A stretch of 36,874 nucleotides of DNA, taken from positions 1 through 36,874 of the IMG/VR virus record IMGVR_UViG_3300017747_003602; one strand, 5' to 3'. Positions 1 to 36,865 of the stretch are shown here, in pieces (position 1 is the stretch's first letter; each line of letters opens with the position of its first letter). The position numbers and the translations under genes were made by a program. Source of the DNA: a virus (taxonomy: Duplodnaviria > Caudoviricetes). The notes beneath the pieces were generated by a model, which had not been told where the DNA came from, ran no database searches, and saw only the letters and a program-made list of their open reading frames with translations.

Positions 1-17
1 CAACAAACGGGGATATT

Positions 18-779
18 ATGCCAAGCCAACAATATAAAGATATGGAAGGAATCAACTTTTCATCTTTAAAATACATGTTAAATGGGCCAGACCATTATAA
101 ATACTGGCAAGAAAATAAGCGCCCCCAATCAGACGCAATGCGTTTAGGAGAATTAATCCATCTAGCAATTTTAGAGCCAGAAGTTTTTGCGGAACAAACT
201 TACATGGGACAAAAATTTAATCGTACGACAAAGCAAGGCAAGGATTTATATGCGCAGCAACTCGAACAAGCTGGCAATAGAACTATAATCTTACCAGAAG
301 ATAAGGAAGCAATAGACCGCGCACTCTTAGCTTTGTCACGCTGCGATTTATGGCAAGAACTACAAAAAAGCGGGTCACCGAAAGTGGAAGTGGCTATGCA
401 ATGGGAAGATCCTTTAACTGGTTTGGGCTTAAAGGGTTGTGCAGATTACATAATGGAATCCCCTGCCCTTGGTGGCGTGGCAATTATAGATGTTAAAACA
501 GCGCGCGAACCAATAACGCGTTGGGACATAGCTAGATACCATTACGACATGCAGGCGGCTTATTATCTAGCGGGATATAGAGCTTTAACAGGAGTGGACG
601 CAGAATTTCTATGGTTGCTAGTTGAAACTGGCGAACCTTACGGCTGCCAGTTTATAGCAGCCAGCGAAGATACTATCTTACGTGGCAAAGATAAAATGAA
701 CGAGGCCCTAAAAAAACTAAAAGAAACTATGACAAGCCAAGATTGGTTTTCACGGTATAACGAAATTACCATCATCTAA
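18..779 (+). CDS. RecE/exonuclease VIII-like PD-(D/E)XK nuclease (DUF3799-like)
   Basis: Motifs INFSSLK, AMRLGELIHLAILEP, KGCADY..IIDVKT and YHYDMQAAYY; directly upstream of a Bet-like gene. Confidence 0.85.
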   Translation: MPSQQYKDMEGINFSSLKYMLNGPDHYKYWQENKRPQSDAMRLGELIHLAILEPEVFAEQTYMGQKFNRTTKQGKDLYAQQLEQAGNRTIILPEDKEAIDRALLALSRCDLWQELQKSGSPKVEVAMQWEDPLTGLGLKGCADYIMESPALGGVAIIDVKTAREPITRWDIARYHYDMQAAYYLAGYRALTGVDAEFLWLLVETGEPYGCQFIAASEDTILRGKDKMNEALKKLKETMTSQDWFSRYNEITII

Positions 780-799
780 CAACAATTGGAGACACTAAA

Positions 800-1750
800 A
801 TGACTAAGGAAATAGCAGCACAAGAGAAGCAGACGCCTATAACGCTTTTAGCAGGGCGGTACAATATAGACCCTATAGAGATGCAGAAAACGCTTAAAGG
901 AACGGTTGTCCCGAACGGTACTACTGATGCAGAATTTGCGGCGTTTTTGATGGTTGCTTACGAATATAAGTTAAACCCAATTCTACGCGAAATTTATGCT
1001 TTCCCTAAAAAGGGTGGTGGCATACAGCCGATAGTTAGCATTGACGGCTGGATGAATATTATAAATTCCCATCCGCAATTCGACGGGCTAACTTTTGACG
1101 AAAAATTAGAAAACGGCAAAATAGTTTCGATAACCGCAAAAATTTTTAGAAAAGATAGATCTCATTCTGTGGATGTAACTGAGTACATGGCGGAGTGCGC
1201 TAGAGGAACTGAACCCTGGAAGCAATGGCCTGCAAGAATGCTTAGGCATAAAGCCGCCATACAAGCGGCGCGCTACGCCTTTGGCTTTAGCGGCATTATG
1301 GAGCCAGATGAAGCCGAAAGAATGCTAGATGTTACCCCTAACCAACCGACGGGCTTTGCAACAAAGCTTGCCGAAGCAGCAAAGAAGCGCAAAGAGCAGC
1401 AGCCTGAAATCATAATCGCCGAGACGGGGGAAGTGGTAACTACTCAGCCAGAAGAAGAAGGCAGGCTTTCATCAATAATTGCAACGCCCCTAGTGGATAT
1501 AATTTTACCTGATGAATCACCTAGTACCTTTGGTATTGGTGGAGCTATCAGTCCGCCTGAACTTGTGCAGCTTATAGGCTCATGGGCCGTCGAAGACAGA
1601 ACAAAATTTATCATCAAGAACGAAGACGTTTTAATTGCTATTAATGCGCGCTTAATAGCAGCTGGGCTTGGTAAAGCAGCCGAGCGGCTTAACGAAATGC
1701 GCGTAGATATACAACAAAACGGAGGATTAATCTACGGAGGTTTAATCTAA
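800..1750 (+). CDS. bet: Phage single-strand annealing recombinase, lambda Bet (Redbeta) family
   Basis: LNPILREIYAFPKKGGGIQPIVSIDGWMNIINSHPQFDG and EYMAEC..PWKQWPARMLRHKAAIQAARYAFGFSGIMEPDEAER match the Redbeta pattern; GGAGA RBS. Confidence 0.9.
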   Translation: MTKEIAAQEKQTPITLLAGRYNIDPIEMQKTLKGTVVPNGTTDAEFAAFLMVAYEYKLNPILREIYAFPKKGGGIQPIVSIDGWMNIINSHPQFDGLTFDEKLENGKIVSITAKIFRKDRSHSVDVTEYMAECARGTEPWKQWPARMLRHKAAIQAARYAFGFSGIMEPDEAERMLDVTPNQPTGFATKLAEAAKKRKEQQPEIIIAETGEVVTTQPEEEGRLSSIIATPLVDIILPDESPSTFGIGGAISPPELVQLIGSWAVEDRTKFIIKNEDVLIAINARLIAAGLGKAAERLNEMRVDIQQNGGLIYGGLI

Positions 1751-3630: not shown

Positions 3631-4146
3631 ATGGATAACGAGCTTTATCACTACGTATACGGGGTAAGAGTAAAAGGCCCCCACAAAGGCCCCTACGGAG
3701 AAATCACGGGTGATGCGTCAAAGATTTATGGCGATTGCACGAATATCTACGGCGATGTTTCTAAAATTACAGGCGATTGCTCTAAGATACGGGGGTACAT
3801 TTTTGTGCTTAGAGGCGATGTCTCAAATATTCGCGGCAAGGTGTCGTGCATTTGGGGCAGTGTTACAAACCTCAAGGGCAATGTCTCAGATATTCGCGGC
3901 GATGTTTCTAAGATTACAGGCGACTGCTCTAAGATATGGGGGTGCGTTGATCTGCTTACAGGCGACGTTACAGACCTCAAGGGCAATGTTACAAACCTCA
4001 AGGGCAATGTCTCAGATATTCGCCGAGATTTGAATAAAATTTATCTTAACTTTTTTATAAAAAACGTTATAAAATACGTACTTTTCCCAGTTTTTGTGAC
4101 CTTTTTGGGCGTTGCTTATTTCTTGCTTATTAATGATTTTTGGTAA
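3631..4146 (+). CDS. Heptapeptide-repeat protein paralog (about 15 repeats) with C-terminal TM helix
   Basis: AAGGAG RBS; N-terminus MDNELYHYVYGVRVKGPHKG vs MDNKLYHYVAGVRVEGVHKG; hydrophobic tail YVLFPVFVTFLGVAYFLLI. Confidence 0.8.
   Translation: MDNELYHYVYGVRVKGPHKGPYGEITGDASKIYGDCTNIYGDVSKITGDCSKIRGYIFVLRGDVSNIRGKVSCIWGSVTNLKGNVSDIRGDVSKITGDCSKIWGCVDLLTGDVTDLKGNVTNLKGNVSDIRRDLNKIYLNFFIKNVIKYVLFPVFVTFLGVAYFLLINDFW
3709..4023 (+). repeat. Degenerate 21-bp tandem repeat (about 15 units)
   Basis: Units GGCGATGTTTCTAAGATTACA and GGCAATGTCTCAGATATTCGC recur. Confidence 0.85.
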
Positions 4147-4152
4147 GATAAA

Positions 4153-4824
4153 ATGACAACATCTTGGTTAGGCCTTTTATTGCTGTTGCATGCCGTGCAG
4201 CAAATAGGCTCAGCTTTTCTGTTATTCGGTGAGTATGAATTTATTGTTTGGGACATAACCAACGTTGTGTCCGTCACATTGTTGTCATATTTGCTGTTTC
4301 GGAATATCTCTTATCGTTCCCCCCGCCGCAAATTGACAAGTTTTATCTTCTTACTTGTTTCTTCTTGGTCTGCCGCAAGCTACGCGGTTATTACTCTTTT
4401 CCAGCAATCATTATTAATATTCAGTATTTGCTTTTTTGTTAGCATGATTCCCTTCTTCTTTTGGGCGGCTATGAGAGATTTCGAATTTAGATCAGATAAA
4501 TATTTAAAAAGTTGCAGTTACTTGATATATAGTCAACCTATAGGTGTCGTTGGTTTAATAGCTCTTTGCGTTGGTTTCCGTGGTGCTGGCGTATCTCTAG
4601 TTGTCAACGGTCGCGAGTTTTCTTACTCGCGAGCTTTCGAAGGCTGGATAATCACAGAGAAAAAACATAGGCATCAAAAAAATGGTGTAAAATATCAAAA
4701 AATTCGTGACGTGGATTTAGCGCATGCAAGAGAACTCATCGGCAAAAAATGGCACTGGCGGAAAAACTGTCTCAGCACATTTTCGCGATACCAAGACAGA
4801 AAATGCCCCTGCTGGTGGGCCTGA
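4153..4824 (+). CDS. Multi-pass membrane protein with soluble C-terminal domain (possible permuted papain-like fold)
   Basis: About 5 hydrophobic segments; C-terminal VSLVVNGREFSY and ARELIGKKWHWRKNCLSTF. Confidence 0.6.
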   Translation: MTTSWLGLLLLLHAVQQIGSAFLLFGEYEFIVWDITNVVSVTLLSYLLFRNISYRSPRRKLTSFIFLLVSSWSAASYAVITLFQQSLLIFSICFFVSMIPFFFWAAMRDFEFRSDKYLKSCSYLIYSQPIGVVGLIALCVGFRGAGVSLVVNGREFSYSRAFEGWIITEKKHRHQKNGVKYQKIRDVDLAHARELIGKKWHWRKNCLSTFSRYQDRKCPCWWA

Positions 4825-5173
4825 TTTTCCGTGGGGTGAAATACACAAAAGAACAGAATCAACTTGTGAGCGAATTGTAGCTGAAAAATTCCACGAAGCT
4901 AAACAGCAATTTAAAGACGATATAGACCGAATCTTGCGGCCCATGAACGCCCTCATAAAATATATGATTGCCCCTCTCCTTGCGGCCCTTTGCAGCATTT
5001 CTATTTTTATCTTTTCCCTCATGTACAACCAGTTGACCAATCTCAATTTATCAGTCCAGGCCCTTAATCAAACAATTGCAACAATCGCTGCAAATCTGCA
5101 CTCCATAGAAAAGGACTCTGAAGAGAATAAGCGTGCTATAGAAAAAGTGGAAGACCGCATTTATCAGCGATAA
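4724..5173 (+). CDS. Single-TM plus coiled-coil membrane protein (lysis-associated candidate); start uncertain
   Basis: TM IAPLLAALCSISIFIFSLMY followed by a heptad-like tail; 100-nt overlap with the upstream gene. Confidence 0.55.
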   Translation: MQENSSAKNGTGGKTVSAHFRDTKTENAPAGGPDFPWGEIHKRTESTCERIVAEKFHEAKQQFKDDIDRILRPMNALIKYMIAPLLAALCSISIFIFSLMYNQLTNLNLSVQALNQTIATIAANLHSIEKDSEENKRAIEKVEDRIYQR

Positions 5174-5178
5174 AATTC

Positions 5179-5206
5179 TTGCAATTAAAAATTATATATC
5201 TAGATT
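5179..5206 (+). promoter_or_regulatory. Putative sigma70-type promoter upstream of the lysis genes
   Basis: TTGCAA (5179-5184), 16 nt, TAGATT (5201-5206) in AT-rich intergenic DNA. Confidence 0.5.
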
Positions 5207-5211
5207 CCTTT

Positions 5212-5279
5212 CACTACTTGTTGTTAGTTTAGTGCTATACGGCGCGGGGCGGGAACCTCCACCAACTCCGCGCCATTTT
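5212..5279 (+). ncRNA. Candidate structured small RNA or 5' leader (antisense seed loop plus GC-rich hairpin)
   Basis: CACTA/TAGTG stem enclosing TTGTTGTTAGTT; hairpin GGCGCGGGG...CTCCGCGCC (5241-5274) followed by ATTTT; anti-SD CCTCC at 5256-5260. Confidence 0.4.
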
Positions 5280-5292
5280 AGGAGGAACAAAC

Positions 5293-5502
5293 ATGGAAGT
5301 TTTTTTAGGTCTATTTGCCGCTCTTGGCGTAACTCTCTCTTTGTTTTTTACGCTTCTTTATCAAATTATTTTGGCTCTTTTTATTTGTCTCTGCATGTTT
5401 AGCTATGCGGTCCTGCAAGTAGGCGCGTTGCCTTTTCGCGCGGTTGCTAATCTAACTTGTCGTGTTTACTGGTATGCACGACGCAAAGTGTTTTTGGGTT
5501 AG
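5293..5502 (+). CDS. Small hydrophobic membrane protein (69 aa), holin/antiholin-like candidate
   Basis: Strong AGGAGG RBS; long hydrophobic stretch with basic C-terminus; directly before the holin. Confidence 0.6.
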   Translation: MEVFLGLFAALGVTLSLFFTLLYQIILALFICLCMFSYAVLQVGALPFRAVANLTCRVYWYARRKVFLG

Positions 5503-5507
5503 CTCGC

Positions 5508-5918
5508 ATGTCGTTGGAGCTTATTAGCGGCGGCATTAATTTAATTAATTCCGTTGTAAATCGCATTTGGCCTGATGCGACAGAAGCCGAGAAACAAAAA
5601 TTAACTTTAGCGCTATCTGAACTAGATGCAGAGCGCGAGACGATGCGCGCTCAGGCGGAAATAAATTTACAAGACGCTAAAAGCGAAAATAGGTTTAACT
5701 CTGGATGGCGTCCATTTGTGGGGTGGGTATGTGGTATATCTTTTGCTTATGCAGCGTTCTTGGAGCCGCTCTTACGTTTCATATCTGCAGTTATTTTTGG
5801 CTATAGCGGGCCTTTCCCTCAAATTGATACAACTATTACTATGCAAGTTCTTTTCGGTTTGTTGGGGTTTGCTGGTTTTAGGTCTTTCGAAAAAATCTCA
5901 AAAATGAAAGTTAAATAA
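5508..5918 (+). CDS. Holin (3TM gene-transfer-agent-type family)
   Basis: QAEINLQDAKS..FNSGWRPFVGWVCG and LFGLLGFAGFRSFEK motifs; adjacent to the endolysin; ATG at 5508 preferred to the track start 5457. Confidence 0.85.
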   Translation: MSLELISGGINLINSVVNRIWPDATEAEKQKLTLALSELDAERETMRAQAEINLQDAKSENRFNSGWRPFVGWVCGISFAYAAFLEPLLRFISAVIFGYSGPFPQIDTTITMQVLFGLLGFAGFRSFEKISKMKVK

Positions 5919-6574
5919 TGAACGCATTTAAATATTTTCAACTTAACGATTTTGCTTCACCTGATGCAGCTGGCTCTGGCTCTAAAATGGATCATGACTT
6001 CATCAGTAAGCTAGATAATTACAGAGAGAAATTTGGCGCTCCTTTGATTGTAACTTCTGGCTATCGCACGCCTAAGCATAATAGTAAGGTAGCTAGTACT
6101 GGCAATGATGGGCCACACACAACGGGACGGGCGGTTGATTTGCAGCCTAAATTGCCAAGCAGTGCGCAAGCGTTTCTGCTTCTAAAGCTTGCGTTCGAAG
6201 CGGAGTTTACTGGCATTGGTTTGCGTCAGGAAGGTCAAGAGCGGAGAAAGAACTTTATCCATTTAGATGATCTGCAAGAACCTGATTATCCGCGCCCCTC
6301 ATTCTGGACATATCCCTTGCCGAATGCTGAAAAAATTATTCTTCCTAAAACTAAGAATTTTTGTTTTGGCACTAAGGCTTATCAGCTTTTGCGCAGTACT
6401 GTCATTAACAGTAAAGAGCCAGTCGTAATCTTTGTCCGCCAGCATGGGCCTATAGAAGACAGATTTATTGCAATGGATTTAAACGAAGATTCTAAAATGT
6501 CTCACATTCACACGGTAACAACTTGCTATATGGATCAGCTCGAATATGAGTTTTACAATCAAGCAACACGATAG
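5918..6574 (+). CDS. Endolysin, peptidase M15A family, with extra C-terminal region
   Basis: YFQLNDFASP, TSGYRTPKHN, HTTGRAVD and FIHLD zinc-peptidase motifs; TAATG coupling to the holin. Confidence 0.85.
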   Translation: MNAFKYFQLNDFASPDAAGSGSKMDHDFISKLDNYREKFGAPLIVTSGYRTPKHNSKVASTGNDGPHTTGRAVDLQPKLPSSAQAFLLLKLAFEAEFTGIGLRQEGQERRKNFIHLDDLQEPDYPRPSFWTYPLPNAEKIILPKTKNFCFGTKAYQLLRSTVINSKEPVVIFVRQHGPIEDRFIAMDLNEDSKMSHIHTVTTCYMDQLEYEFYNQATR

Positions 6575-21830: not shown

Positions 21831-21855
21831 AAATATAGCGGGGGTTCCCCCCCGC
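21831..21855 (-). terminator. Putative intrinsic terminator after the capsid genes
   Basis: On - strand: GCGGGGG-GGAA-CCCCCGC then TATATTT; weak U-tract, position analogous to T7 T-phi. Confidence 0.55.
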
Positions 21856-21860
21856 CATTG

Positions 21861-22367
21861 TTACCTGGTAGTAGCAGGGTCTATTACTATTTTTAACTTT
21901 AAGACTTCGCTTGCAGCTGTGCTTGCCGTTTTAATCAGTAAGCCAAGATAATAACCGCCAGCTGGTTCTGTGTCGGAAGATTTGCTTAGTAATTTGTTAA
22001 TATTATCATCTCTATCCAGGGAAGTGTTTAACGTGCCTAGTAGCTCGCGATAAGTAAGCGCGCTAGATAGGTCCACACCATCCCAAAGAATATCCGCGTC
22101 CACTTCTGTAAATGTGCCGTCAGCGTTCATTTTCCAGAAACCAAGATCATTGTTTGTTGCAGAAGTTAGTGCGGGAGTAGCTCCAACAATTTCAGCAATT
22201 CTTGCATCGCCAGGCAAAGGACCAGCAAGAATATGCAGAGTGTTAGCGTCAGCACCCGTTGCGATAGTTTTCTCGTAATGGGTAGAAAGCATTTGCTTTC
22301 CTAAACTGTTGGCAGGATTGCCAGGATATTCCGTATAGCCGTTTGATCTGATACCAGTTTTTGACAT
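21861..22367 (-). CDS. Capsid cement/decoration protein candidate
   Basis: Beta-rich 168 aa downstream of the major capsid; AAGGA RBS. Confidence 0.55.
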   Translation of the reverse strand: MSKTGIRSNGYTEYPGNPANSLGKQMLSTHYEKTIATGADANTLHILAGPLPGDARIAEIVGATPALTSATNNDLGFWKMNADGTFTEVDADILWDGVDLSSALTYRELLGTLNTSLDRDDNINKLLSKSSDTEPAGGYYLGLLIKTASTAASEVLKLKIVIDPATTR

Positions 22368-22387: not shown

Positions 22388-22933
22388 TTAAGAAACAGTT
22401 GCGCTAAATGGTGTCGCTTCTGTGCCACTACTGCTAGTGACTCCAAAAACAGCCCATTTATCAGCCGCAACGTCTTGTAGTTGGATAAAGTCGCCGATTG
22501 CTGCGCCGCCTGTGGTAGTACCATTCAGGGTTATTGTATCTGAATCGTTTGCCGTAGGCCAAGGGTGCGCTAAGTCTGGAGTATCCCCTGTAGAATTAGT
22601 AATAATGTTACCGTGCATAACATCATTACCAGTTACTTTAATAAGATAGTTAGAGGTGTTTACAGCCCCGACTACAAATCTGTAACACGCACCGCTACCA
22701 GTTGCTGCTGGTAGCGTGTGCGTTCTCGCAGAGCCAGCGCCGCCCATTAAGAGAGTTTTCCCCTCGTGGGTGGCTTGTACAATAGATGTGCTAACATCAA
22801 TCGCAACCATTCTGGCTGATACGTCGCATGCGTTATTTAACTCGGCGGCTGTCGCCGCTAAGTTGGCAAGATCAACATTAGTAGAGTCTGTTAACTCTAA
22901 TGTTTTTATTCTCTTCTGGACTGGTAAGCTCAT
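22388..22933 (-). CDS. Head fibre/decoration-like structural protein
   Basis: TLPAATGSGACYRFVV and SDTITLNGTTTGG..GTEATPF motifs; AAGGGG RBS before ATG 22933. Confidence 0.6.
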   Translation of the reverse strand: MSLPVQKRIKTLELTDSTNVDLANLAATAAELNNACDVSARMVAIDVSTSIVQATHEGKTLLMGGAGSARTHTLPAATGSGACYRFVVGAVNTSNYLIKVTGNDVMHGNIITNSTGDTPDLAHPWPTANDSDTITLNGTTTGGAAIGDFIQLQDVAADKWAVFGVTSSSGTEATPFSATVS

Positions 22934-22947
22934 GATATCCCCTTTTA

Positions 22948-23877
22948 CTATATTGTAGTGGTTACAATCTGGACGCGGCAACCTTCTGTACGCATAGCAT
23001 TAATCCAAAGATCAATAGTTATATCGTTTGAATTAACTTTAGTTGCGCTGCGAGTAATGCCTAGATCCGCAAGTTCCATGCTGATTGCAATGGACTCAGG
23101 GGCTAAACAGATGCAAGAACGTGTAGTTGTACCTTCTGCAAGCACTGGGTTTGTAACTGTAGCGCCACCGTTCACGGAGCCAGCAAACATTGCAATTTGA
23201 TAAGTACCAGCTGATTGCATTTTTCCTGTCTCTACTGGGCGGCCAGTTATATAATCGGAGCTTATAAATTCTACTTCGCCCATCAAGTCGGTATTTTCAG
23301 TACCCGTTAGGCATAAAATAGAACCTTTAAACATCGAGTATTCGAGTTCATTATTAATAAAATTTTGCGTAATTTCTTGTATTTTGTCGTAAGTTAAACC
23401 CGCTGAAGCATCGACGGTTAAAACTCCGTCTGTTGCGGCAGAAATCGCGGTTGGAGAACCGTTCGGCGCTCCTACATTTACTGTACCAACGGCGGCGGCT
23501 GCAATGACGCGGTCTATAGTGCGTGATTTAGCATTAACAAGCTGCTGCAAGATAGAGCTAGAAGGGTCCGCAATTAGTTCGTTTATGTCGTAAAGAGCAT
23601 CAACGGTAATTGTGCGGGTAAAACGCCTTTTAGTAAGCAGGCGGTTATCGATTGAGTAATCGCCGTATTGTTTGTCTGGGTTCCTTTGTGCTACCTCTGA
23701 CAATTCTAGGCGACCGATACGGGCCATGTTGTTTGTTTTGCCAGCAGAAGGCAGATAGATAACAGCGCCAGAACTTTCTAATTGCGAGGTTTTTTGTTGC
23801 GCCAACTCAAAGAAAGATGAACGAAAATTTTGCATCAACCCTTGGTCAAGAGTCGGTAGATACGTATTGCTAGTCAT
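22948..23877 (-). CDS. Major capsid protein (BPP-1/T7-like podovirus type)
   Basis: FFELAQQKTSQLE, RTIDRVIAAAAVG and EFISSDY motifs; 309 aa; follows the scaffold region. Confidence 0.85.
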   Translation of the reverse strand: MTSNTYLPTLDQGLMQNFRSSFFELAQQKTSQLESSGAVIYLPSAGKTNNMARIGRLELSEVAQRNPDKQYGDYSIDNRLLTKRRFTRTITVDALYDINELIADPSSSILQQLVNAKSRTIDRVIAAAAVGTVNVGAPNGSPTAISAATDGVLTVDASAGLTYDKIQEITQNFINNELEYSMFKGSILCLTGTENTDLMGEVEFISSDYITGRPVETGKMQSAGTYQIAMFAGSVNGGATVTNPVLAEGTTTRSCICLAPESIAISMELADLGITRSATKVNSNDITIDLWINAMRTEGCRVQIVTTTI

Positions 23878-30372: not shown

Positions 30373-30432
30373 TAAAAAATAATTATATTTTTTGAAAAAA
30401 ATTGTTGAAGGGGATAAAAAGTTATATATACT
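30373..30432 (+). promoter_or_regulatory. Early promoter P1 with A-tract UP element
   Basis: TTGAAG (30405-30410), 16 nt, TATACT (30427-30432); upstream block shared with P2. Confidence 0.7.
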
Positions 30433-30498
30433 TGCATGCATCGAGAGAGCAAAAAGTTTTCTCGCCACAAAAAAACCACACAAAAAAAAGAGGCATTT

Positions 30499-30687
30499 AT
30501 GCAGATAGAGATCGAGATCAAAAGCGTTTACGGCAGAGAGACTTTTTACCCCGCTTGCGAGCATAGCAAAATGCTGTGCAAGCTGATGCATACAAAGACT
30601 CTGACGGTTGAGGCGCTGGCGACACTTAAAGGCTCTGGCTATGCGATAGCTATAGCAACTGCCGCCCCTAAAACTTTTGCAATCTAA
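30499..30687 (+). CDS. Small early protein (62 aa, MQIEIEIKSVYGRETFYPAC...)
   Basis: GAGG RBS before ATG 30499; first gene after P1. Confidence 0.7.
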   Translation: MQIEIEIKSVYGRETFYPACEHSKMLCKLMHTKTLTVEALATLKGSGYAIAIATAAPKTFAI

Positions 30688-30710
30688 CAACAAACACGGA
30701 GATAAAAAAA

Positions 30711-31019
30711 ATGATCACACCACAAATCAAAGCAACTGCGTACACTGCGTACTACGTTAAAATTATCGGCCAGGGTACATGGGGCCCCTACGAATTGCCT
30801 GTGGCTATGACTATGGCCGAGGAATTATGCAGGGATTTTGGCCGCGAAGCTATGGCTTGCATCTACGACGAGGAGCCATACATTGAGGTCGAGGACAGGC
30901 ATACACGCGAGATTTACCACGTGTATATATCGAGCATTACGGGATTGCCTATTATTTATGATTTACAGGCCGAACGACGGCTCCCGCAATTTTGCCAGCA
31001 GGTCAAAAGGGCAAAATAA
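30711..31019 (+). CDS. Small early hypothetical protein
   Basis: Shared leader with GGAGA RBS. Confidence 0.7.
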   Translation: MITPQIKATAYTAYYVKIIGQGTWGPYELPVAMTMAEELCRDFGREAMACIYDEEPYIEVEDRHTREIYHVYISSITGLPIIYDLQAERRLPQFCQQVKRAK

Positions 31020-31078
31020 AAAACAAGCGCACGCGACATTAACAACCAATAACAACATAAAGCAACGGAGAAAAAAAA

Positions 31079-31312
31079 ATGACAAATCATTATTACTTTA
31101 GAAAGCCAGGCTCGGAAGAAATACAAGAAATTCTGGCTGCTTCGCCGACTGAAGCGCTTAACGAGTACGCCCGAAATTTATGGCACGGGGGCGATGAAAA
31201 TATGCGCCGAAAAATGGTAAATGGCCTTACAATAGAATACCTTAAGGAGGGTGCTCTTTGGGAAAAATGGGCTATTTTTGCCGGAATAAAAAACAAAGGA
31301 GACAAAAAATGA
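31079..31312 (+). CDS. Small early hypothetical protein
   Basis: Shared leader with GGAGA RBS. Confidence 0.7.
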   Translation: MTNHYYFRKPGSEEIQEILAASPTEALNEYARNLWHGGDENMRRKMVNGLTIEYLKEGALWEKWAIFAGIKNKGDKK

Positions 31313-31614
31313 ATACACCACAAATTAAAGCAACTGCAGCAAATCGCAAAATTTTACGGGAGTACGCAAGAGAGGCATTGGCCGATTATTCGCCAGTTAT
31401 GACTTGGCTGCTGCTGAGCAATAATGGCGATTTGCGCATACAAGGGCAGACTTTTCACGCAGGCTGCCTCGATGTAGTAGCCGAGACTGGAGGGTTTTTA
31501 AAGGCTCACGGCGAAGGCGCGGCAAGAGATAATTGGGGCGAAAAATTTAAAACCCAGCGCGCGTATTTACAGTATCTACTTGGAGATAGCGAATATCAGA
31601 GAATTTTTGGTTAA
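31309..31614 (+). CDS. Small early hypothetical protein (MNTPQIKATA...)
   Basis: AAAGGAGACAAAAAATG leader; ATGA overlap; start reassigned from 31258. Confidence 0.7.
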   Translation: MNTPQIKATAANRKILREYAREALADYSPVMTWLLLSNNGDLRIQGQTFHAGCLDVVAETGGFLKAHGEGAARDNWGEKFKTQRAYLQYLLGDSEYQRIFG

Positions 31615-31648
31615 TATTTTTTACAAAATTGAGGAAGAATAATAATTT

Positions 31649-31676
31649 ATCTTCCCCATGCAAGTGGGGGTGTAGT
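31649..31676 (+). repeat. Solitary type I-E CRISPR-repeat-like unit 1
   Basis: ATCTTCCCCATGCAAGTGGGGGTGTAGT; hairpin CCCCAT-GCAA-GTGGGG; intergenic; second copy at 35110-35135. Confidence 0.65.
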
Positions 31677-31710
31677 AACAAAAAACAGAAAAAACAAAGG
31701 AGATTAAAAG

Positions 31711-32079
31711 ATGAACACATACAATAACTTGCGCGCTGAAAAATATCGCGAAACAGAGGCCAAGATTGAAACACAAAAATCTTTATATTGCTTTGAGGAC
31801 GAGTACGGCGCTTTGTACGCCGAAGACGCGGACAAAGAAAAAGTTTTAAAGCTTTTACGCTTGGCCATAGAAAAAAAAGCTGATGGTTTGCGTGATAGCG
31901 TGGCGGAAAAGCTGCAGGCTTATTCAAGCTATGGCGACGCATATTCGGATGAACGCGCTAGGGTTGCATTTTTCCACGCACAAGAAAAGCGCGTAGATAA
32001 TGCGGCGGCGGAAGAAGCAAAAGCTTGTTTTACGCTCTACAAAAAAATTATTTTGGATTTTGAAAAAGAAGGCGTTTAA
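31711..32079 (+). CDS. Small early hypothetical protein (helical, charged)
   Basis: AAGGAG RBS; directly downstream of repeat unit 1. Confidence 0.7.
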   Translation: MNTYNNLRAEKYRETEAKIETQKSLYCFEDEYGALYAEDADKEKVLKLLRLAIEKKADGLRDSVAEKLQAYSSYGDAYSDERARVAFFHAQEKRVDNAAAEEAKACFTLYKKIILDFEKEGV

Positions 32080-32096
32080 CCTTTTTTTGCTATAAA

Positions 32097-32156
32097 TAAA
32101 AAATAATTATAAAAGATAAAAAAAATTGTTGACAACAAGAATAATAATTGTAAACT
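32097..32156 (+). promoter_or_regulatory. Early promoter P2 with A-tract UP element
   Basis: TTGACA (32129-32134), 16 nt, TAAACT (32151-32156). Confidence 0.75.
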
Positions 32157-32194
32157 GTAGAAACTAACAACAAAACAAAAAACGGAGACAAAAA

Positions 32195-32569
32195 ATGACT
32201 AAAGTTGAACCTATATTTCTGAAAAATGTAAAATGGAAATGGGCGGAGCATGAAACCCATTTAATCGATGGGGTCTTTGGTAAAGTAGAAATCCATTTTA
32301 AAAGAAAAGGTGAAATTTACGACGATCAGTTTGATCAATTAATGTTATCTTGCGCGTCGCAGGAAAATGAAAAAGAAGAAATTGCCCAAAAGATTAAAAA
32401 AGAAAAAGAAGCGGCGGCAAAATTAAACTTTACTGCTTATTCTACTCATATTCGCGGCCCATTTGGTACGGGCGAAACTGCTGAAGATGCCCTTGTAGAT
32501 TTATATTCACAAATTGCTAAGGGTTTTGCGGTCCAGGAATGTTTGATTTGTTATTGCCACCAAAACTAA
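32195..32569 (+). CDS. Small early hypothetical protein
   Basis: Shared leader CGGAGACAAAAAATG. Confidence 0.7.
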   Translation: MTKVEPIFLKNVKWKWAEHETHLIDGVFGKVEIHFKRKGEIYDDQFDQLMLSCASQENEKEEIAQKIKKEKEAAAKLNFTAYSTHIRGPFGTGETAEDALVDLYSQIAKGFAVQECLICYCHQN

Positions 32570-32586
32570 AAAACAAAGGGGACAAA

Positions 32587-32793
32587 ATGTTAACAGAAAT
32601 TGAAATTGAACGGTTAAATTTGGGAGAATTTGAGCTTTGCCAGCTGGCAGACTGGCTGATCAGCGAAGAAAATGCAGTCTTAAGCGATGATAAGCTTTTT
32701 AGCTTGGTTTCTCGGGTTGCGCTGCTGGCCGAATCCTCAGAAAAAATGAAAATGCTTCTGTGGCTGCTGGAACGTAAAATACACCGCGCTTAA
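32587..32793 (+). CDS. Small early hypothetical protein (MLTEIEIERL...)
   Basis: AAAGGGGACAAAATG leader; start reassigned from 32539. Confidence 0.65.
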   Translation: MLTEIEIERLNLGEFELCQLADWLISEENAVLSDDKLFSLVSRVALLAESSEKMKMLLWLLERKIHRA

Positions 32794-32826
32794 AAACCTA
32801 AAAACAACAAAAAACGGAGACAAAAA

Positions 32827-33264
32827 ATGGATACAATTTTTGACGATATTATTGCTCTTAGCACTAAAAAAACATGGGTAAGAAAAGAACTGGACAGGAT
32901 TTTTACAGCATTTTGCGAGCAGTTGGCGACAAGAGCAATGCAGGCTGGAATCAAGCTTGACATCGACACTGTGTACGAGTTGGAGTCCTTTTCTCGCGAA
33001 GCCTATTGGGGATCCGCAAAAAGAATTTACAATATCAGGCTCTATGCGGAGCCTGATTTAGCAGAGCTTACACTAGAGCGCATCCATATAGATGAGCACG
33101 GGCGAGCCACGCGCGTAAATCTGTGCGTGCTCGATGACAATACGGATTTCTGGATTGTGCGGCTAGCAGCGCAATCCTTATCTAATGCTTTGTATGCTTT
33201 CAACAGTTTTATAGCCGCCGAACTGCAGGAATTAAATAGCATTAAATTGGATAGCTGCGGCTAA
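32827..33264 (+). CDS. Early hypothetical protein
   Basis: Shared leader CGGAGACAAAAAATG. Confidence 0.7.
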   Translation: MDTIFDDIIALSTKKTWVRKELDRIFTAFCEQLATRAMQAGIKLDIDTVYELESFSREAYWGSAKRIYNIRLYAEPDLAELTLERIHIDEHGRATRVNLCVLDDNTDFWIVRLAAQSLSNALYAFNSFIAAELQELNSIKLDSCG

Positions 33265-33280
33265 AGTAGGCGGACTATCT

Positions 33281-33307
33281 GTAGCGGTCACAAATTGTGA
33301 CCGCTAC
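33281..33307. promoter_or_regulatory. Perfect 27-bp inverted repeat
   Basis: GTAGCGGTCACAA-A-TTGTGACCGCTAC; intergenic; no U-tract. Confidence 0.6.
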
Positions 33308-33340
33308 GAAAGGAACATTAACAAAAAACGGAGACAAAAT

Positions 33341-34039
33341 ATGAGAGAACCTAGAAAAATCACAGAAGCTAAAGCTAAACTTTCTGAAGAGCAAAAGAAG
33401 CTTGAGGCCGCATCCTGCAAGGCCTTAAAAGATTTTGATGAAGAAAAAATTTCTTTAAATGAGGCTTTGGAGGCGGTTAACGCCTGGAATGCAGTCGCTC
33501 CGCTACCAGGGATGAAAAGCTTGCACCCTCTCAAGTTTCTAAGAATTTTTGGAGTCGAAGCTTCCAAACATCCTCTTACTAAGTCGCAGCTTGAAATCTT
33601 TATAGGTGAGCGTCGGTGGAACGGCAAAATCTATGGCGATGCGGTCTACTTGGATGGAGAGAGAGTAAAGATCGATAGCGATATGATCAAAGATCACGCG
33701 CTGAGAAAAGACGTAAATTCCGATTTTCCTGAAAATCCTTTCCCTAATTCTCCCGACGCCATAGTGGCACATGGCGAAGAGTTCGCGCGCTGGTTTATTA
33801 AAGATAAAGCTAAGACGATTCTCGAGGATCCACTTTTCTTCGAGCCGTGGCTGAAAGCGCTTTTGGCCGTCGTTACGTTCGAGTTGGATGAAGAATACGG
33901 CTATTTTTGCCCTCTTAAAAGGCAACTTTATGAAAGCGCCGCAGAGGCAGAATTTTTTAGCATTTGGAATAAAATGCTGGAATTAAAAGAACTGGAATTA
34001 AAAGAATATGGGCTAGTTTTAAAAAAGAAGAGGAGTTAA
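33341..34039 (+). CDS. Early hypothetical protein (232 aa)
   Basis: Shared leader CGGAGACAAAATATG. Confidence 0.7.
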   Translation: MREPRKITEAKAKLSEEQKKLEAASCKALKDFDEEKISLNEALEAVNAWNAVAPLPGMKSLHPLKFLRIFGVEASKHPLTKSQLEIFIGERRWNGKIYGDAVYLDGERVKIDSDMIKDHALRKDVNSDFPENPFPNSPDAIVAHGEEFARWFIKDKAKTILEDPLFFEPWLKALLAVVTFELDEEYGYFCPLKRQLYESAAEAEFFSIWNKMLELKELELKEYGLVLKKKRS

Positions 34040-36162: not shown

Positions 36163-36865
36163 TGCTACCCCCAACAACTAAACCCTTCCAACTGCCCACG
36201 TAGTCTATGTTTTGGCGGTTTGCGTAAGGATCTGGCAACTTGTTTTGCGTGTAGCTGCGCGCACCAGAGTCGCGCTCTGCCTTGCTTTGCCTAATCGCCG
36301 CGTCAAAATACCTAAAACCTTTAATTTCCCCCGCTTTTTTGAGCGCGCAAAGTCGCTCTACGGTCGGGATGATGTCAAGCGCTGCGCTACAGCCGTCCAA
36401 AAGCCAGTCGGTTATCAACATCGAGTTGGCGGTCATCAGATTTGGGGCAAGGTCGATAATCGTTTTAAAAACTTTTGCCCTTTCATCGCCTATCTCGTCC
36501 AAAGATTTTTCCCCCTCGCGCGGAGTAGTATTACTATTACTAATTATAGTATTACTTACTTCTTTCTTAGTAATAGTATTATTACTATTACTACTCTCAT
36601 TCGTTACTGTAACGTTACATAAGGATTCAAGATCAATATTTTGAAAGCCCTCGTCTAGTTGTAACAATCCAGTCTTTAAGCCGCTTTCAGCCCCCCTTTT
36701 CTTCTCCCTATGTCTTCTTACACGCTTCGCAGAATCGAGAGAATTTGGAAAAAATTTTGAAAAATTTTCTAAAAAAATCTGAAAATTTTCTGAAATTTTT
36801 ATCATCCCCCTACCCTTAAGTAACGTTACAATGGCGTTACATGTCTTGGCAGTTCTGCCTGTCAT
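36149..36865 (-). CDS. Phage replication initiator/replisome organizer (probably 5'-truncated by the window edge)
   Basis: SAKRVRRHREKK and CNVTVT motifs, low-complexity linker, C-terminal FRYFDAAI; upstream of the DnaC-like gene. Confidence 0.7.
   Translation of the reverse strand: MTGRTAKTCNAIVTLLKGRGMIKISENFQIFLENFSKFFPNSLDSAKRVRRHREKKRGAESGLKTGLLQLDEGFQNIDLESLCNVTVTNESSNSNNTITKKEVSNTIISNSNTTPREGEKSLDEIGDERAKVFKTIIDLAPNLMTANSMLITDWLLDGCSAALDIIPTVERLCALKKAGEIKGFRYFDAAIRQSKAERDSGARSYTQNKLPDPYANRQNIDYVGSWKGLVVGGSNARN
36523..36619. repeat. AT-rich direct and inverted repeats inside the initiator gene (candidate origin)
   Basis: TATTACTATTACTA twice (36529, 36580), TAGTATTA three times, GAGTAGTA/TACTACTC inverted pair, palindrome TGTAACGTTACA. 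Confidence 0.55.

Follow-up and report, generated by a model that had tools for sequence, protein, structure and literature searches.

A predicted small RNA ahead of the lysis genes of a podophage, complementary to a tag in early and recombination gene leaders

In lambda-like phages without a visible repressor or anti-sigma factor, the turning down of the early genes is explained mostly by proteins. Phage RNAs that act in trans on repeated short sites of their own mRNA are exemplified by the c4 RNA of P1 and P7 and by the CI RNA of P4, which control one immunity operon. Four further systems are relevant to the locus described here. In bacteria, ACA motifs just 5' of the SD sequence act as translation enhancers that are silenced by the GcvB sRNA, the U/G-rich R1 seed of which pairs with such sites in several mRNAs (PMC3879156). 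StxS and the lambda 6S RNA are short RNAs that run from a promoter to a hairpin right before the lysis genes and have a second role as trans-regulators; the targets of StxS are stx1B and the host gene rpoS rather than a common early leader (PMC7547250). In the cluster K mycobacteriophages, the SAS is an asymmetric word found at the starts of non-structural genes in 11–19 copies that contain the SD, with a lone, geneless copy in the reverse orientation in four genomes; the authors who described it left undecided whether the word is bound as RNA or by a protein (PMC3203893). Finally, the AbcR1/2 and NfeR1 RNAs of alpha-rhizobia carry a C-rich anti-SD motif in a hairpin loop (PMC8844928).

The DNA analysed here, referred to as the window, is the near-complete genome of a podophage (36,874 nt), and the runs containing this phage come from freshwater metagenomes. 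In searches with PHROGs and Pfam, the minus strand was found to encode the terminase, the portal, the capsid, and the tail proteins, and the plus strand exo, bet (identified by PHROGs), the holin, and the endolysin; the right end holds genes for a DnaC-like loader and for a replisome organiser. Near-identical records, L229 (99.9%) and G001/L002 (92–99% in blocks), join the end of the window to its start and supply the missing 1.7–2.3 kb, where divergent promoters are found together with a small HTH gene and the complete exo leader. The holin is of the GTA type with three transmembrane segments, from which an alphaproteobacterial host may be guessed.

Several other features of this genome deserve mention. 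At L229:4540-4660, back-to-back TTGACA-16 promoters separate a 73-aa HTH gene from a 99-aa gene of no family in an arrangement like the lambdoid switch, with neither CI nor integrase detected by PHROGs or Pfam. At least three paralogous genes made of 7-residue repeats (21-nt period) are found at 2381-2980, 3631-4146, and L229:5437-5817, and their copy number varies among strains. Inverted and direct repeats at 36523-36830, within the replisome organiser gene, are candidate origin iterons; the 5' end of this gene extends past the window's version (305 aa in L002). Strong hairpins lie right after the capsid gene and ahead of the first tail gene (22685-22774 and 21833-21888), and a 197-aa ORF (22388-22981) overlaps the capsid frame as a possible frameshift extension. 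A near-perfect 12-bp hairpin at 33281-33307, without a U-tail on either strand, immediately precedes the leader of gene 33341 and is retained in G001 and in the siphophage G036 (see below). Two membrane-protein-like genes stand ahead of the lysis genes in two phages (4153-5173 and L236:6060-7011) at 28–31% identity, while the holin and endolysin of these two phages differ.

Table 1. Coordinates of the predicted RNA unit, its candidate target sites, and related features (window positions unless another record is named; energies are predicted, in kcal/mol).
Feature	Position	Strand	Remarks
Promoter-like site TTGCAA-16-TAGATT	5179..5206	+	TTGCAA 5179-5184, TAGATT 5201-5206; predicted start ~A5213
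Predicted small RNA, ~67 nt	5213..5279	+	also 5' leader of any read-through lysis mRNA
U/G-rich seed	5218..5230	+	complement of the ACA-rich leader tag
GC hairpin	5241..5274	+	9-bp stem, small internal loop, 2-bp GG/CC, 8-nt loop
AUUUU tail, then SD (AGGAGG) and spacer of gene 5293	5275..5292	+	pairs with the seed in read-through folds
Lysis cassette	5293..6574	+	69-aa hydrophobic ORF (5293), 3TM holin (5508), M15 peptidase endolysin (5918)
Best predicted target, 13 nt	32161..32173	+	gene 32195 leader; -10.4; first bases after promoter 32129-32156
Predicted target, 10 nt	30684..30693	+	gene 30711 leader; -6.8; contains upstream stop codon
Predicted target, 10 nt	776..785	+	bet leader; -5.9; contains exo stop codon
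Predicted exo-leader site, 3' end	1..6	+	cut by window edge; -6.7 / -7.1
Two weaker predicted sites	31038..31057	+	gene 31079 leader; -4.8
Weak predicted site, 8 nt	32803..32810	+	gene 32827 leader; -4.3
Winged-HTH gene 1750 leader	1711..1741	+	7-nt seed match and 7-nt hairpin-loop match; -3.6, -5.2; weak
Major capsid gene start	23865..23875	-	11-nt match with G.U pairs; -6.2
GC hairpin of G036	L241:10142-10177	+	intergenic, 3' of ssb; from hairpin scan

The word CTAACAACAA has four exact copies in the genome, at 776, 30684, and 32164 on the plus strand and at 5218 on the minus strand, against 0.12 expected. The three sense copies are in the leaders of bet and of two early genes, and the single antisense copy is at 5218-5227. 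An earlier note on this DNA had described the stretch 5218-5230 as antisense to a leader common to early genes and had called for the 10-mer to be counted against a background; none of 100 shuffles reached four copies. Its coordinates all proved correct: the reverse complementarity between 5218-5230 and 32161-32173 is exact over 13 of 13 positions, the matches at 776-785 and 30684-30693 extend over 10 of 10, and the shorter ones at 31050 and 32803 are present. As also reported there, the sense copies precede the SD, and they end 15–22 nt ahead of the start codon. In the copies at 776 and 30684, the TAA within the tag also terminates the preceding gene (exo in the case of 776), and the 10-mer count therefore overstates the surprise.

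The sense copies belong to a broader set of A/C-rich leaders, the ends of which consist of (AC)GGAG and an A-rich spacer. With genes classed as early, middle, or late by the present analysis on the basis of position and strand, the mean number of ACA triplets per leader is 1.83 for 12 early genes, 1.11 for 9 middle genes, 0.67 for 6 lysis genes, and 0.48 for 21 late genes, an enrichment in the 21 early and middle leaders over the 27 late and lysis leaders with p = 0.0012. Another leader word, GGAGACAAAA, is more frequent (4 copies) and lacks an antisense copy in the window genome. Two other readings of the antisense copy and its surroundings were rejected. A leftward gene with the copy as its own leader would have an SD-like word on the minus strand (by eye), but the start codon and ORF are absent; a late-promoter word in common with the structural operon gave 2 matches against 1.17 expected, which is not significant. 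The early region itself (window 30400-34000, L002:800-4600, and L241:700-5500) consists of swappable cassettes whose leaders are nearly identical and whose promoter blocks are repeated.

The antisense copy lies 11–24 nt 3' of a promoter-like site, which was found as earlier described, directly before the copy. This site has 8 of the 12 consensus bases, and the loose promoter pattern has 14 matches with 16-nt spacing in the window; a standard promoter and terminator scan of the window called neither the promoter at 5179 nor a terminator at 5241-5274. A 16-nt spacer is typical of the clear promoters, namely TTGACA-16 at 32129 and three further TTGACA-16 sites in the L229 gap; in G036, TTGCAA/TTGCAT-16-TATAAA is repeated before three cassettes. 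The putative promoter at 5179 fits this phage's 16-nt-spacer class. Since TTGCAA promoters drive early cassettes in G036, it is not evidently a late promoter.

The unit lies in a 120-nt intergenic gap between a stop codon at 5173 and the ATG at 5293. The GC-rich hairpin noticed earlier at 5241-5274 is indeed strong: at -23.1 kcal/mol, it is the second-strongest locus among the genome's 40-nt windows. Its loop carries CUCC, an anti-SD motif, and over 7 nt it matches the SD of gene 1750. The fold of 5213-5279 has a z score of -2.5, and 3 of 200 shuffles are equal or better. The placing of the seed in the loop of a CACTA/TAGTG stem holds only for an RNA that starts at or before 5212, whereas a start at A5213 gives a different, weak helix. 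In the folds from both start sites, positions 5218-5222 are mostly open (unpaired probability 0.5–1.0) and positions 5226-5227 mostly paired (0.1). The sRNA-like unit, put at about 65 nt earlier, has a predicted length of 67 nt with a start at A5213. Its hairpin, with four U residues and a long loop, is a poor intrinsic terminator. The 3' end may therefore be set by incomplete termination or by trimming, and some transcription would be expected to continue into the lysis genes. In the metatranscriptome X20 (a small share, as contigs only), two contigs align to the window, neither of them on 5200-5300. A longer, 3'-derived RNA starting from 5200 did well in a rank test, but 47 of 179 shuffles matched it, and this candidate was rejected.

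Targets were ranked by accessibility-corrected pairing energy over 51 leaders of the window phage. The leader of gene 32195 comes first, followed by those of gene 30711 and exo, the start of the capsid gene, the bet leader, and then weak sites (energies in Table 1); early or recombination leaders thus occupy four of the top five places. When accessibility is left out of account, duplex energy alone does not distinguish early leaders from late ones. The site at 32161-32173 is conserved in G001 despite a different downstream gene, and that at 30684 is missing from the corresponding G001 position. In L229, the full exo site pairs over 11 nt, one of the pairs being G.U (-6.7 kcal/mol), and in G001, all 11 pairs are Watson–Crick (-7.1 kcal/mol), an A/G change between two strains with pairing retained as G.U. 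The predicted site at the capsid start belongs to a late gene and counts against early-only targeting. The proposal that one RNA silences bet together with many early genes thus stands in part: the leaders of bet, exo, 32195, and 30711 are predicted to pair, but "many" was an overstatement, with pairing over at least 10 nt in four leaders only and no site in 6 of the 12 early-cassette leaders.

A second phage, G036, was found via the common leader word and is a siphophage by its tail genes. Its early cassettes have 81–93% DNA identity to those of the window, which suggests that its host is probably the same; at this level of identity, early cassettes have been exchanged between podophage and siphophage. 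The window-type unit is absent from the equivalent place before the lysis genes of G036, and the 27 kb of G036 sequence analysed contain no copy of the window RNA, though they do contain a 13-nt site for the window seed. A hairpin elsewhere in G036, at L241:10142-10177, has the same build as that of the window: a 9-bp GC stem, a small internal loop, a 2-bp GG/CC helix, and an 8-nt CUCC loop. The leader word of G036 has seven sense copies and one antisense copy (0.04 expected in L241); six of the seven sense copies are directly 5' of a start codon, and the antisense copy sits in the hairpin loop. The best predicted partners of this hairpin are non-structural genes, including that for the Sak4 recombinase. 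This hairpin would be a stronger leader-mirror candidate than that of the window, and the complementarity spans the SD. Rfam contains no family near the gathering score for it. The loop also has a partial partner in cis, 30 nt 3'. Across the two phages, the G036 loop gives four exact pairings with window leaders over 10–13 nt (-5.1 to -11.1 kcal/mol), and the window seed gives a 13-nt pairing with a G036 leader (-9.6 kcal/mol). The same 9-mer precedes both hairpins, at 5204-5212 and at L241:10123-10131; the G036 copy codes for the IPF tail of SSB and the window copy is non-coding, so that the 9-mer may be a relic of common origin or a coincidence.

Homologues were sought through Bet (52 loci), holin (80 loci), capsid (49 loci), and an alignment of DnaC (80 viral and 80 genome loci). 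In these searches, the unit was carried only by G001 and L229, both of them identical across it, and no diverged homologue was found through these four proteins, a 17-nt pattern, the upstream genes, or blastn. The 17-nt pattern returned four more contigs, with no context in common; the two genes upstream of the unit returned near-identical phages only; and blastn of the window against annotated phages gave four short chance matches only. The leader tag is absent from the whole records of 16 capsid-related phages and 1 holin-related phage. In G001 and G036, leader tags are variable and have shifted from gene to gene. The contig X9 (a single contig at depth 4) has eight differences within 5207-5357. 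Three could be placed, in the linker (5237), in the loop (5256), and at 5265, and these three do not touch the seed or the 9-bp stem; the change at 5256 leaves CUCC intact and shortens the match to gene 1750, and that at 5265 contributes one more pair at the top of the stem. The remaining five are near the contig ends and may affect either the seed or the coding region. In X5 and X7, no change falls in the unit among the changes listed (40 of 69); the adjoining coding DNA is also unchanged, and so this is not element-specific conservation. Nothing from X10 or X13 aligned.

How far does the arrangement depart from chance? Without regard to position, the seed ranks 12th by match length, with a higher maximum in 40 of 40 shuffled genomes, and 300 of 300 shuffled genomes are higher by energy. 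The antisense copy alone is therefore within chance genome-wide and is unusual only given its position. Shuffled seeds do as well as the real one in early-versus-late preference in 48 of 246 cases and equal its binding to the top four sites in 11 of 246, and the early preference is largely explained by composition. Only 173 of 73,694 windows of 28 nt (0.23%), at nine sites, match at least three leaders over at least 10 nt. Eight of these sites are U-runs; the ninth is located between the promoter-like site and the second-strongest hairpin. A post hoc estimate of our own, which takes a handful of such units per genome, puts the coincidence at about 1%. The layout was also sought, with full leaders considered, in 310 overlapping loci of at least 10 kb, as an intergenic antisense copy of a multi-leader 10-mer together with a hairpin of -18 kcal/mol or lower, criteria that were chosen after the candidate had been seen. 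A 10-mer common to at least three leaders is present in 25 of the 310 loci, and the screen was passed only by the window and five overlapping G036 loci, with none of 13 unrelated loci passing. The six G001 loci failed the screen, the probable reason being that an exact 10-mer is common to fewer than three of their leaders. The other intergenic matches (L185, L200, L230, and L235) have no strong hairpin, and by eye, they look mostly like leaders of uncalled genes on the opposite strand.

One explanation that must be weighed is that the complementarity is coincidental, the tags being A/C-rich enhancers shuffled with their cassettes and the hairpin a terminator or stabilising element of the exo-bet operon, perhaps next to a lysis promoter. 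The lack of significance for match length, energy, and seed shuffles when no condition is placed on position is in keeping with this, as are the stop codons in two of the copies, the mobility of the tags in G001 and G036, and the nine sites per genome that match at least three leaders. However, of the nine sites, the only one other than a U-run occupies a short gap running from a promoter-like site to a top-ranked hairpin, a parallel unit exists in G036, and the 13 unrelated loci with common leader words lack the layout, so that coincidence appears unlikely. Another explanation is that the unit serves the lysis mRNA as its 5' leader, with the U/G stretch folding on the RBS of gene 5293; pairing by early mRNAs would then free the RBS, or else the match in trans would be incidental. 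The seed does pair with the SD and spacer of 5293 in read-through folds, the tail is a poor terminator, and the G036 loop too has its partial partner in cis. The earlier suggestion that early mRNAs pair with this leader finds modest computational support in the cost of opening the RBS, which falls from 7.3–7.4 to 3.8–6.0 kcal/mol when the seed is occupied, but 7.3 kcal/mol is mid-range among 25 plus-strand genes. Moreover, the helix in cis is weak and broken, the match in trans (13 of 13) is better than that in cis, the X9 change at 5237 costs one cis pair (in that single contig at depth 4), and the activation of lysis by early mRNAs would come in the wrong temporal order. A role as lysis leader in place of one in trans is quite unlikely on this evidence, and the two roles could coexist.

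The earlier note had also raised the alternative of a protein-binding site that is independent of orientation. A phage protein, for example an HTH protein, might bind the DNA in either orientation just 3' of promoters and so repress early and lysis promoters jointly. Copies are indeed found just behind the -10 boxes of the 32129 promoter, of the exo-side promoter, and, reversed, of the 5179 site; in the L229 gap, a related stretch, again reversed, overlaps with the leftward promoter; and HTH-like proteins are encoded, with Pfam matches below the curated cut-offs. The fit is poor, however, since the sense copies track start codons, in ending at a fixed 12–22 nt before the ATG, and not promoters: those at 776 and 30684 are not near any promoter-like site. 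Nor is the motif palindromic, and the hairpin is left unexplained. Such a DNA site is very unlikely.

The reading preferred here, to which we give somewhat better than even chances, is that 5179-5279 is the gene of a trans-acting sRNA of about 67 nt that would mask the ACA-rich tags in the exo and bet leaders and in those of two or more early genes, so lowering the translation of these genes. It builds on the complementarity, positions, promoter-like spacing, hairpin, and parallel G036 unit observed directly, and it draws support from the promoter class, the accessibility ranking, the additional exo site beyond the window, and the G036 hairpin. Host sigma-70 polymerase would initiate at about A5213. 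Part of the transcripts would stop at the GC hairpin or be trimmed to it, and the remainder would enter the lysis cassette in the manner of pR'/tR'. If the ACA-rich tags are translation enhancers, pairing with the seed would mask them in the GcvB fashion, and the CUCC loop may contribute weak anti-SD contacts. As the genome replicates, the RNA might accumulate and damp the early and recombination proteins later in infection, this timing being the least supported step of the proposal.

A broader idea is that every phage of this host uses a leader-mirror RNA of its own to switch off its early and recombination regulon and that, as a result of cassette swapping, these RNAs hit the other phage as well. 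This seems doubtful at present; if true, temporal control at the RNA level would double as interference between phages. One RNA addressing a common leader tag would be a compact alternative to protein repressors, and it would automatically cover newly acquired cassettes. It would also offer a testable function for start-associated repeats with a lone reverse copy, a matter left undecided since the cluster K description (PMC3203893). A search of mostly non-subscription literature returned no publication on a phage sRNA by which several early genes of the same phage are silenced via a common leader. The sections available of a review of phage sRNAs (PMC12197685) contain no case of one RNA acting on several own early genes through a common tag, and its supplementary table of 38 undescribed sRNAs may bear on novelty.

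Comparison with the systems introduced above gives a mixed picture. The c4 and CI RNAs act on a single operon, whereas the window sites are spread over several, and in place of an Rfam match and a cloverleaf-like fold, the window has a two-element fold. Rfam covariance models gave nothing near the gathering score for the window or the unit, with GcvB and C4 among the families not matched. The C-rich anti-SD loop recalls AbcR1/2 and NfeR1, but the window RNA differs in its lack of an Rfam match and in the predicted weakness of loop binding. The layout is of the SAS type, a repeat in one orientation with a lone reverse copy, and has three exact sense copies in the window and seven in G036. The cluster K 13-mer spanning the SD is not matched, however: the window word differs, has 3–4 good copies, and lies upstream of the SD, and the leader word of G036 is closer to the SAS. 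As for pR'/tR', the window has a predicted promoter and a short predicted RNA ahead of the lysis genes, without a strong terminator. No Q-like antiterminator, integrase, or CI was detected in it by PHROGs (50 proteins) or Pfam (30 proteins), many of its proteins being without a family. The GcvB type of pairing is present by sequence and energy, in that a G/U-rich seed faces ACA sites 5' of the SD; unlike GcvB, the window RNA is phage-encoded, would be 67 nt long, and would be aimed at the phage's own genes. An Rfam member of neither family, the candidate is GcvB-like in its proposed function and StxS-like in its position.
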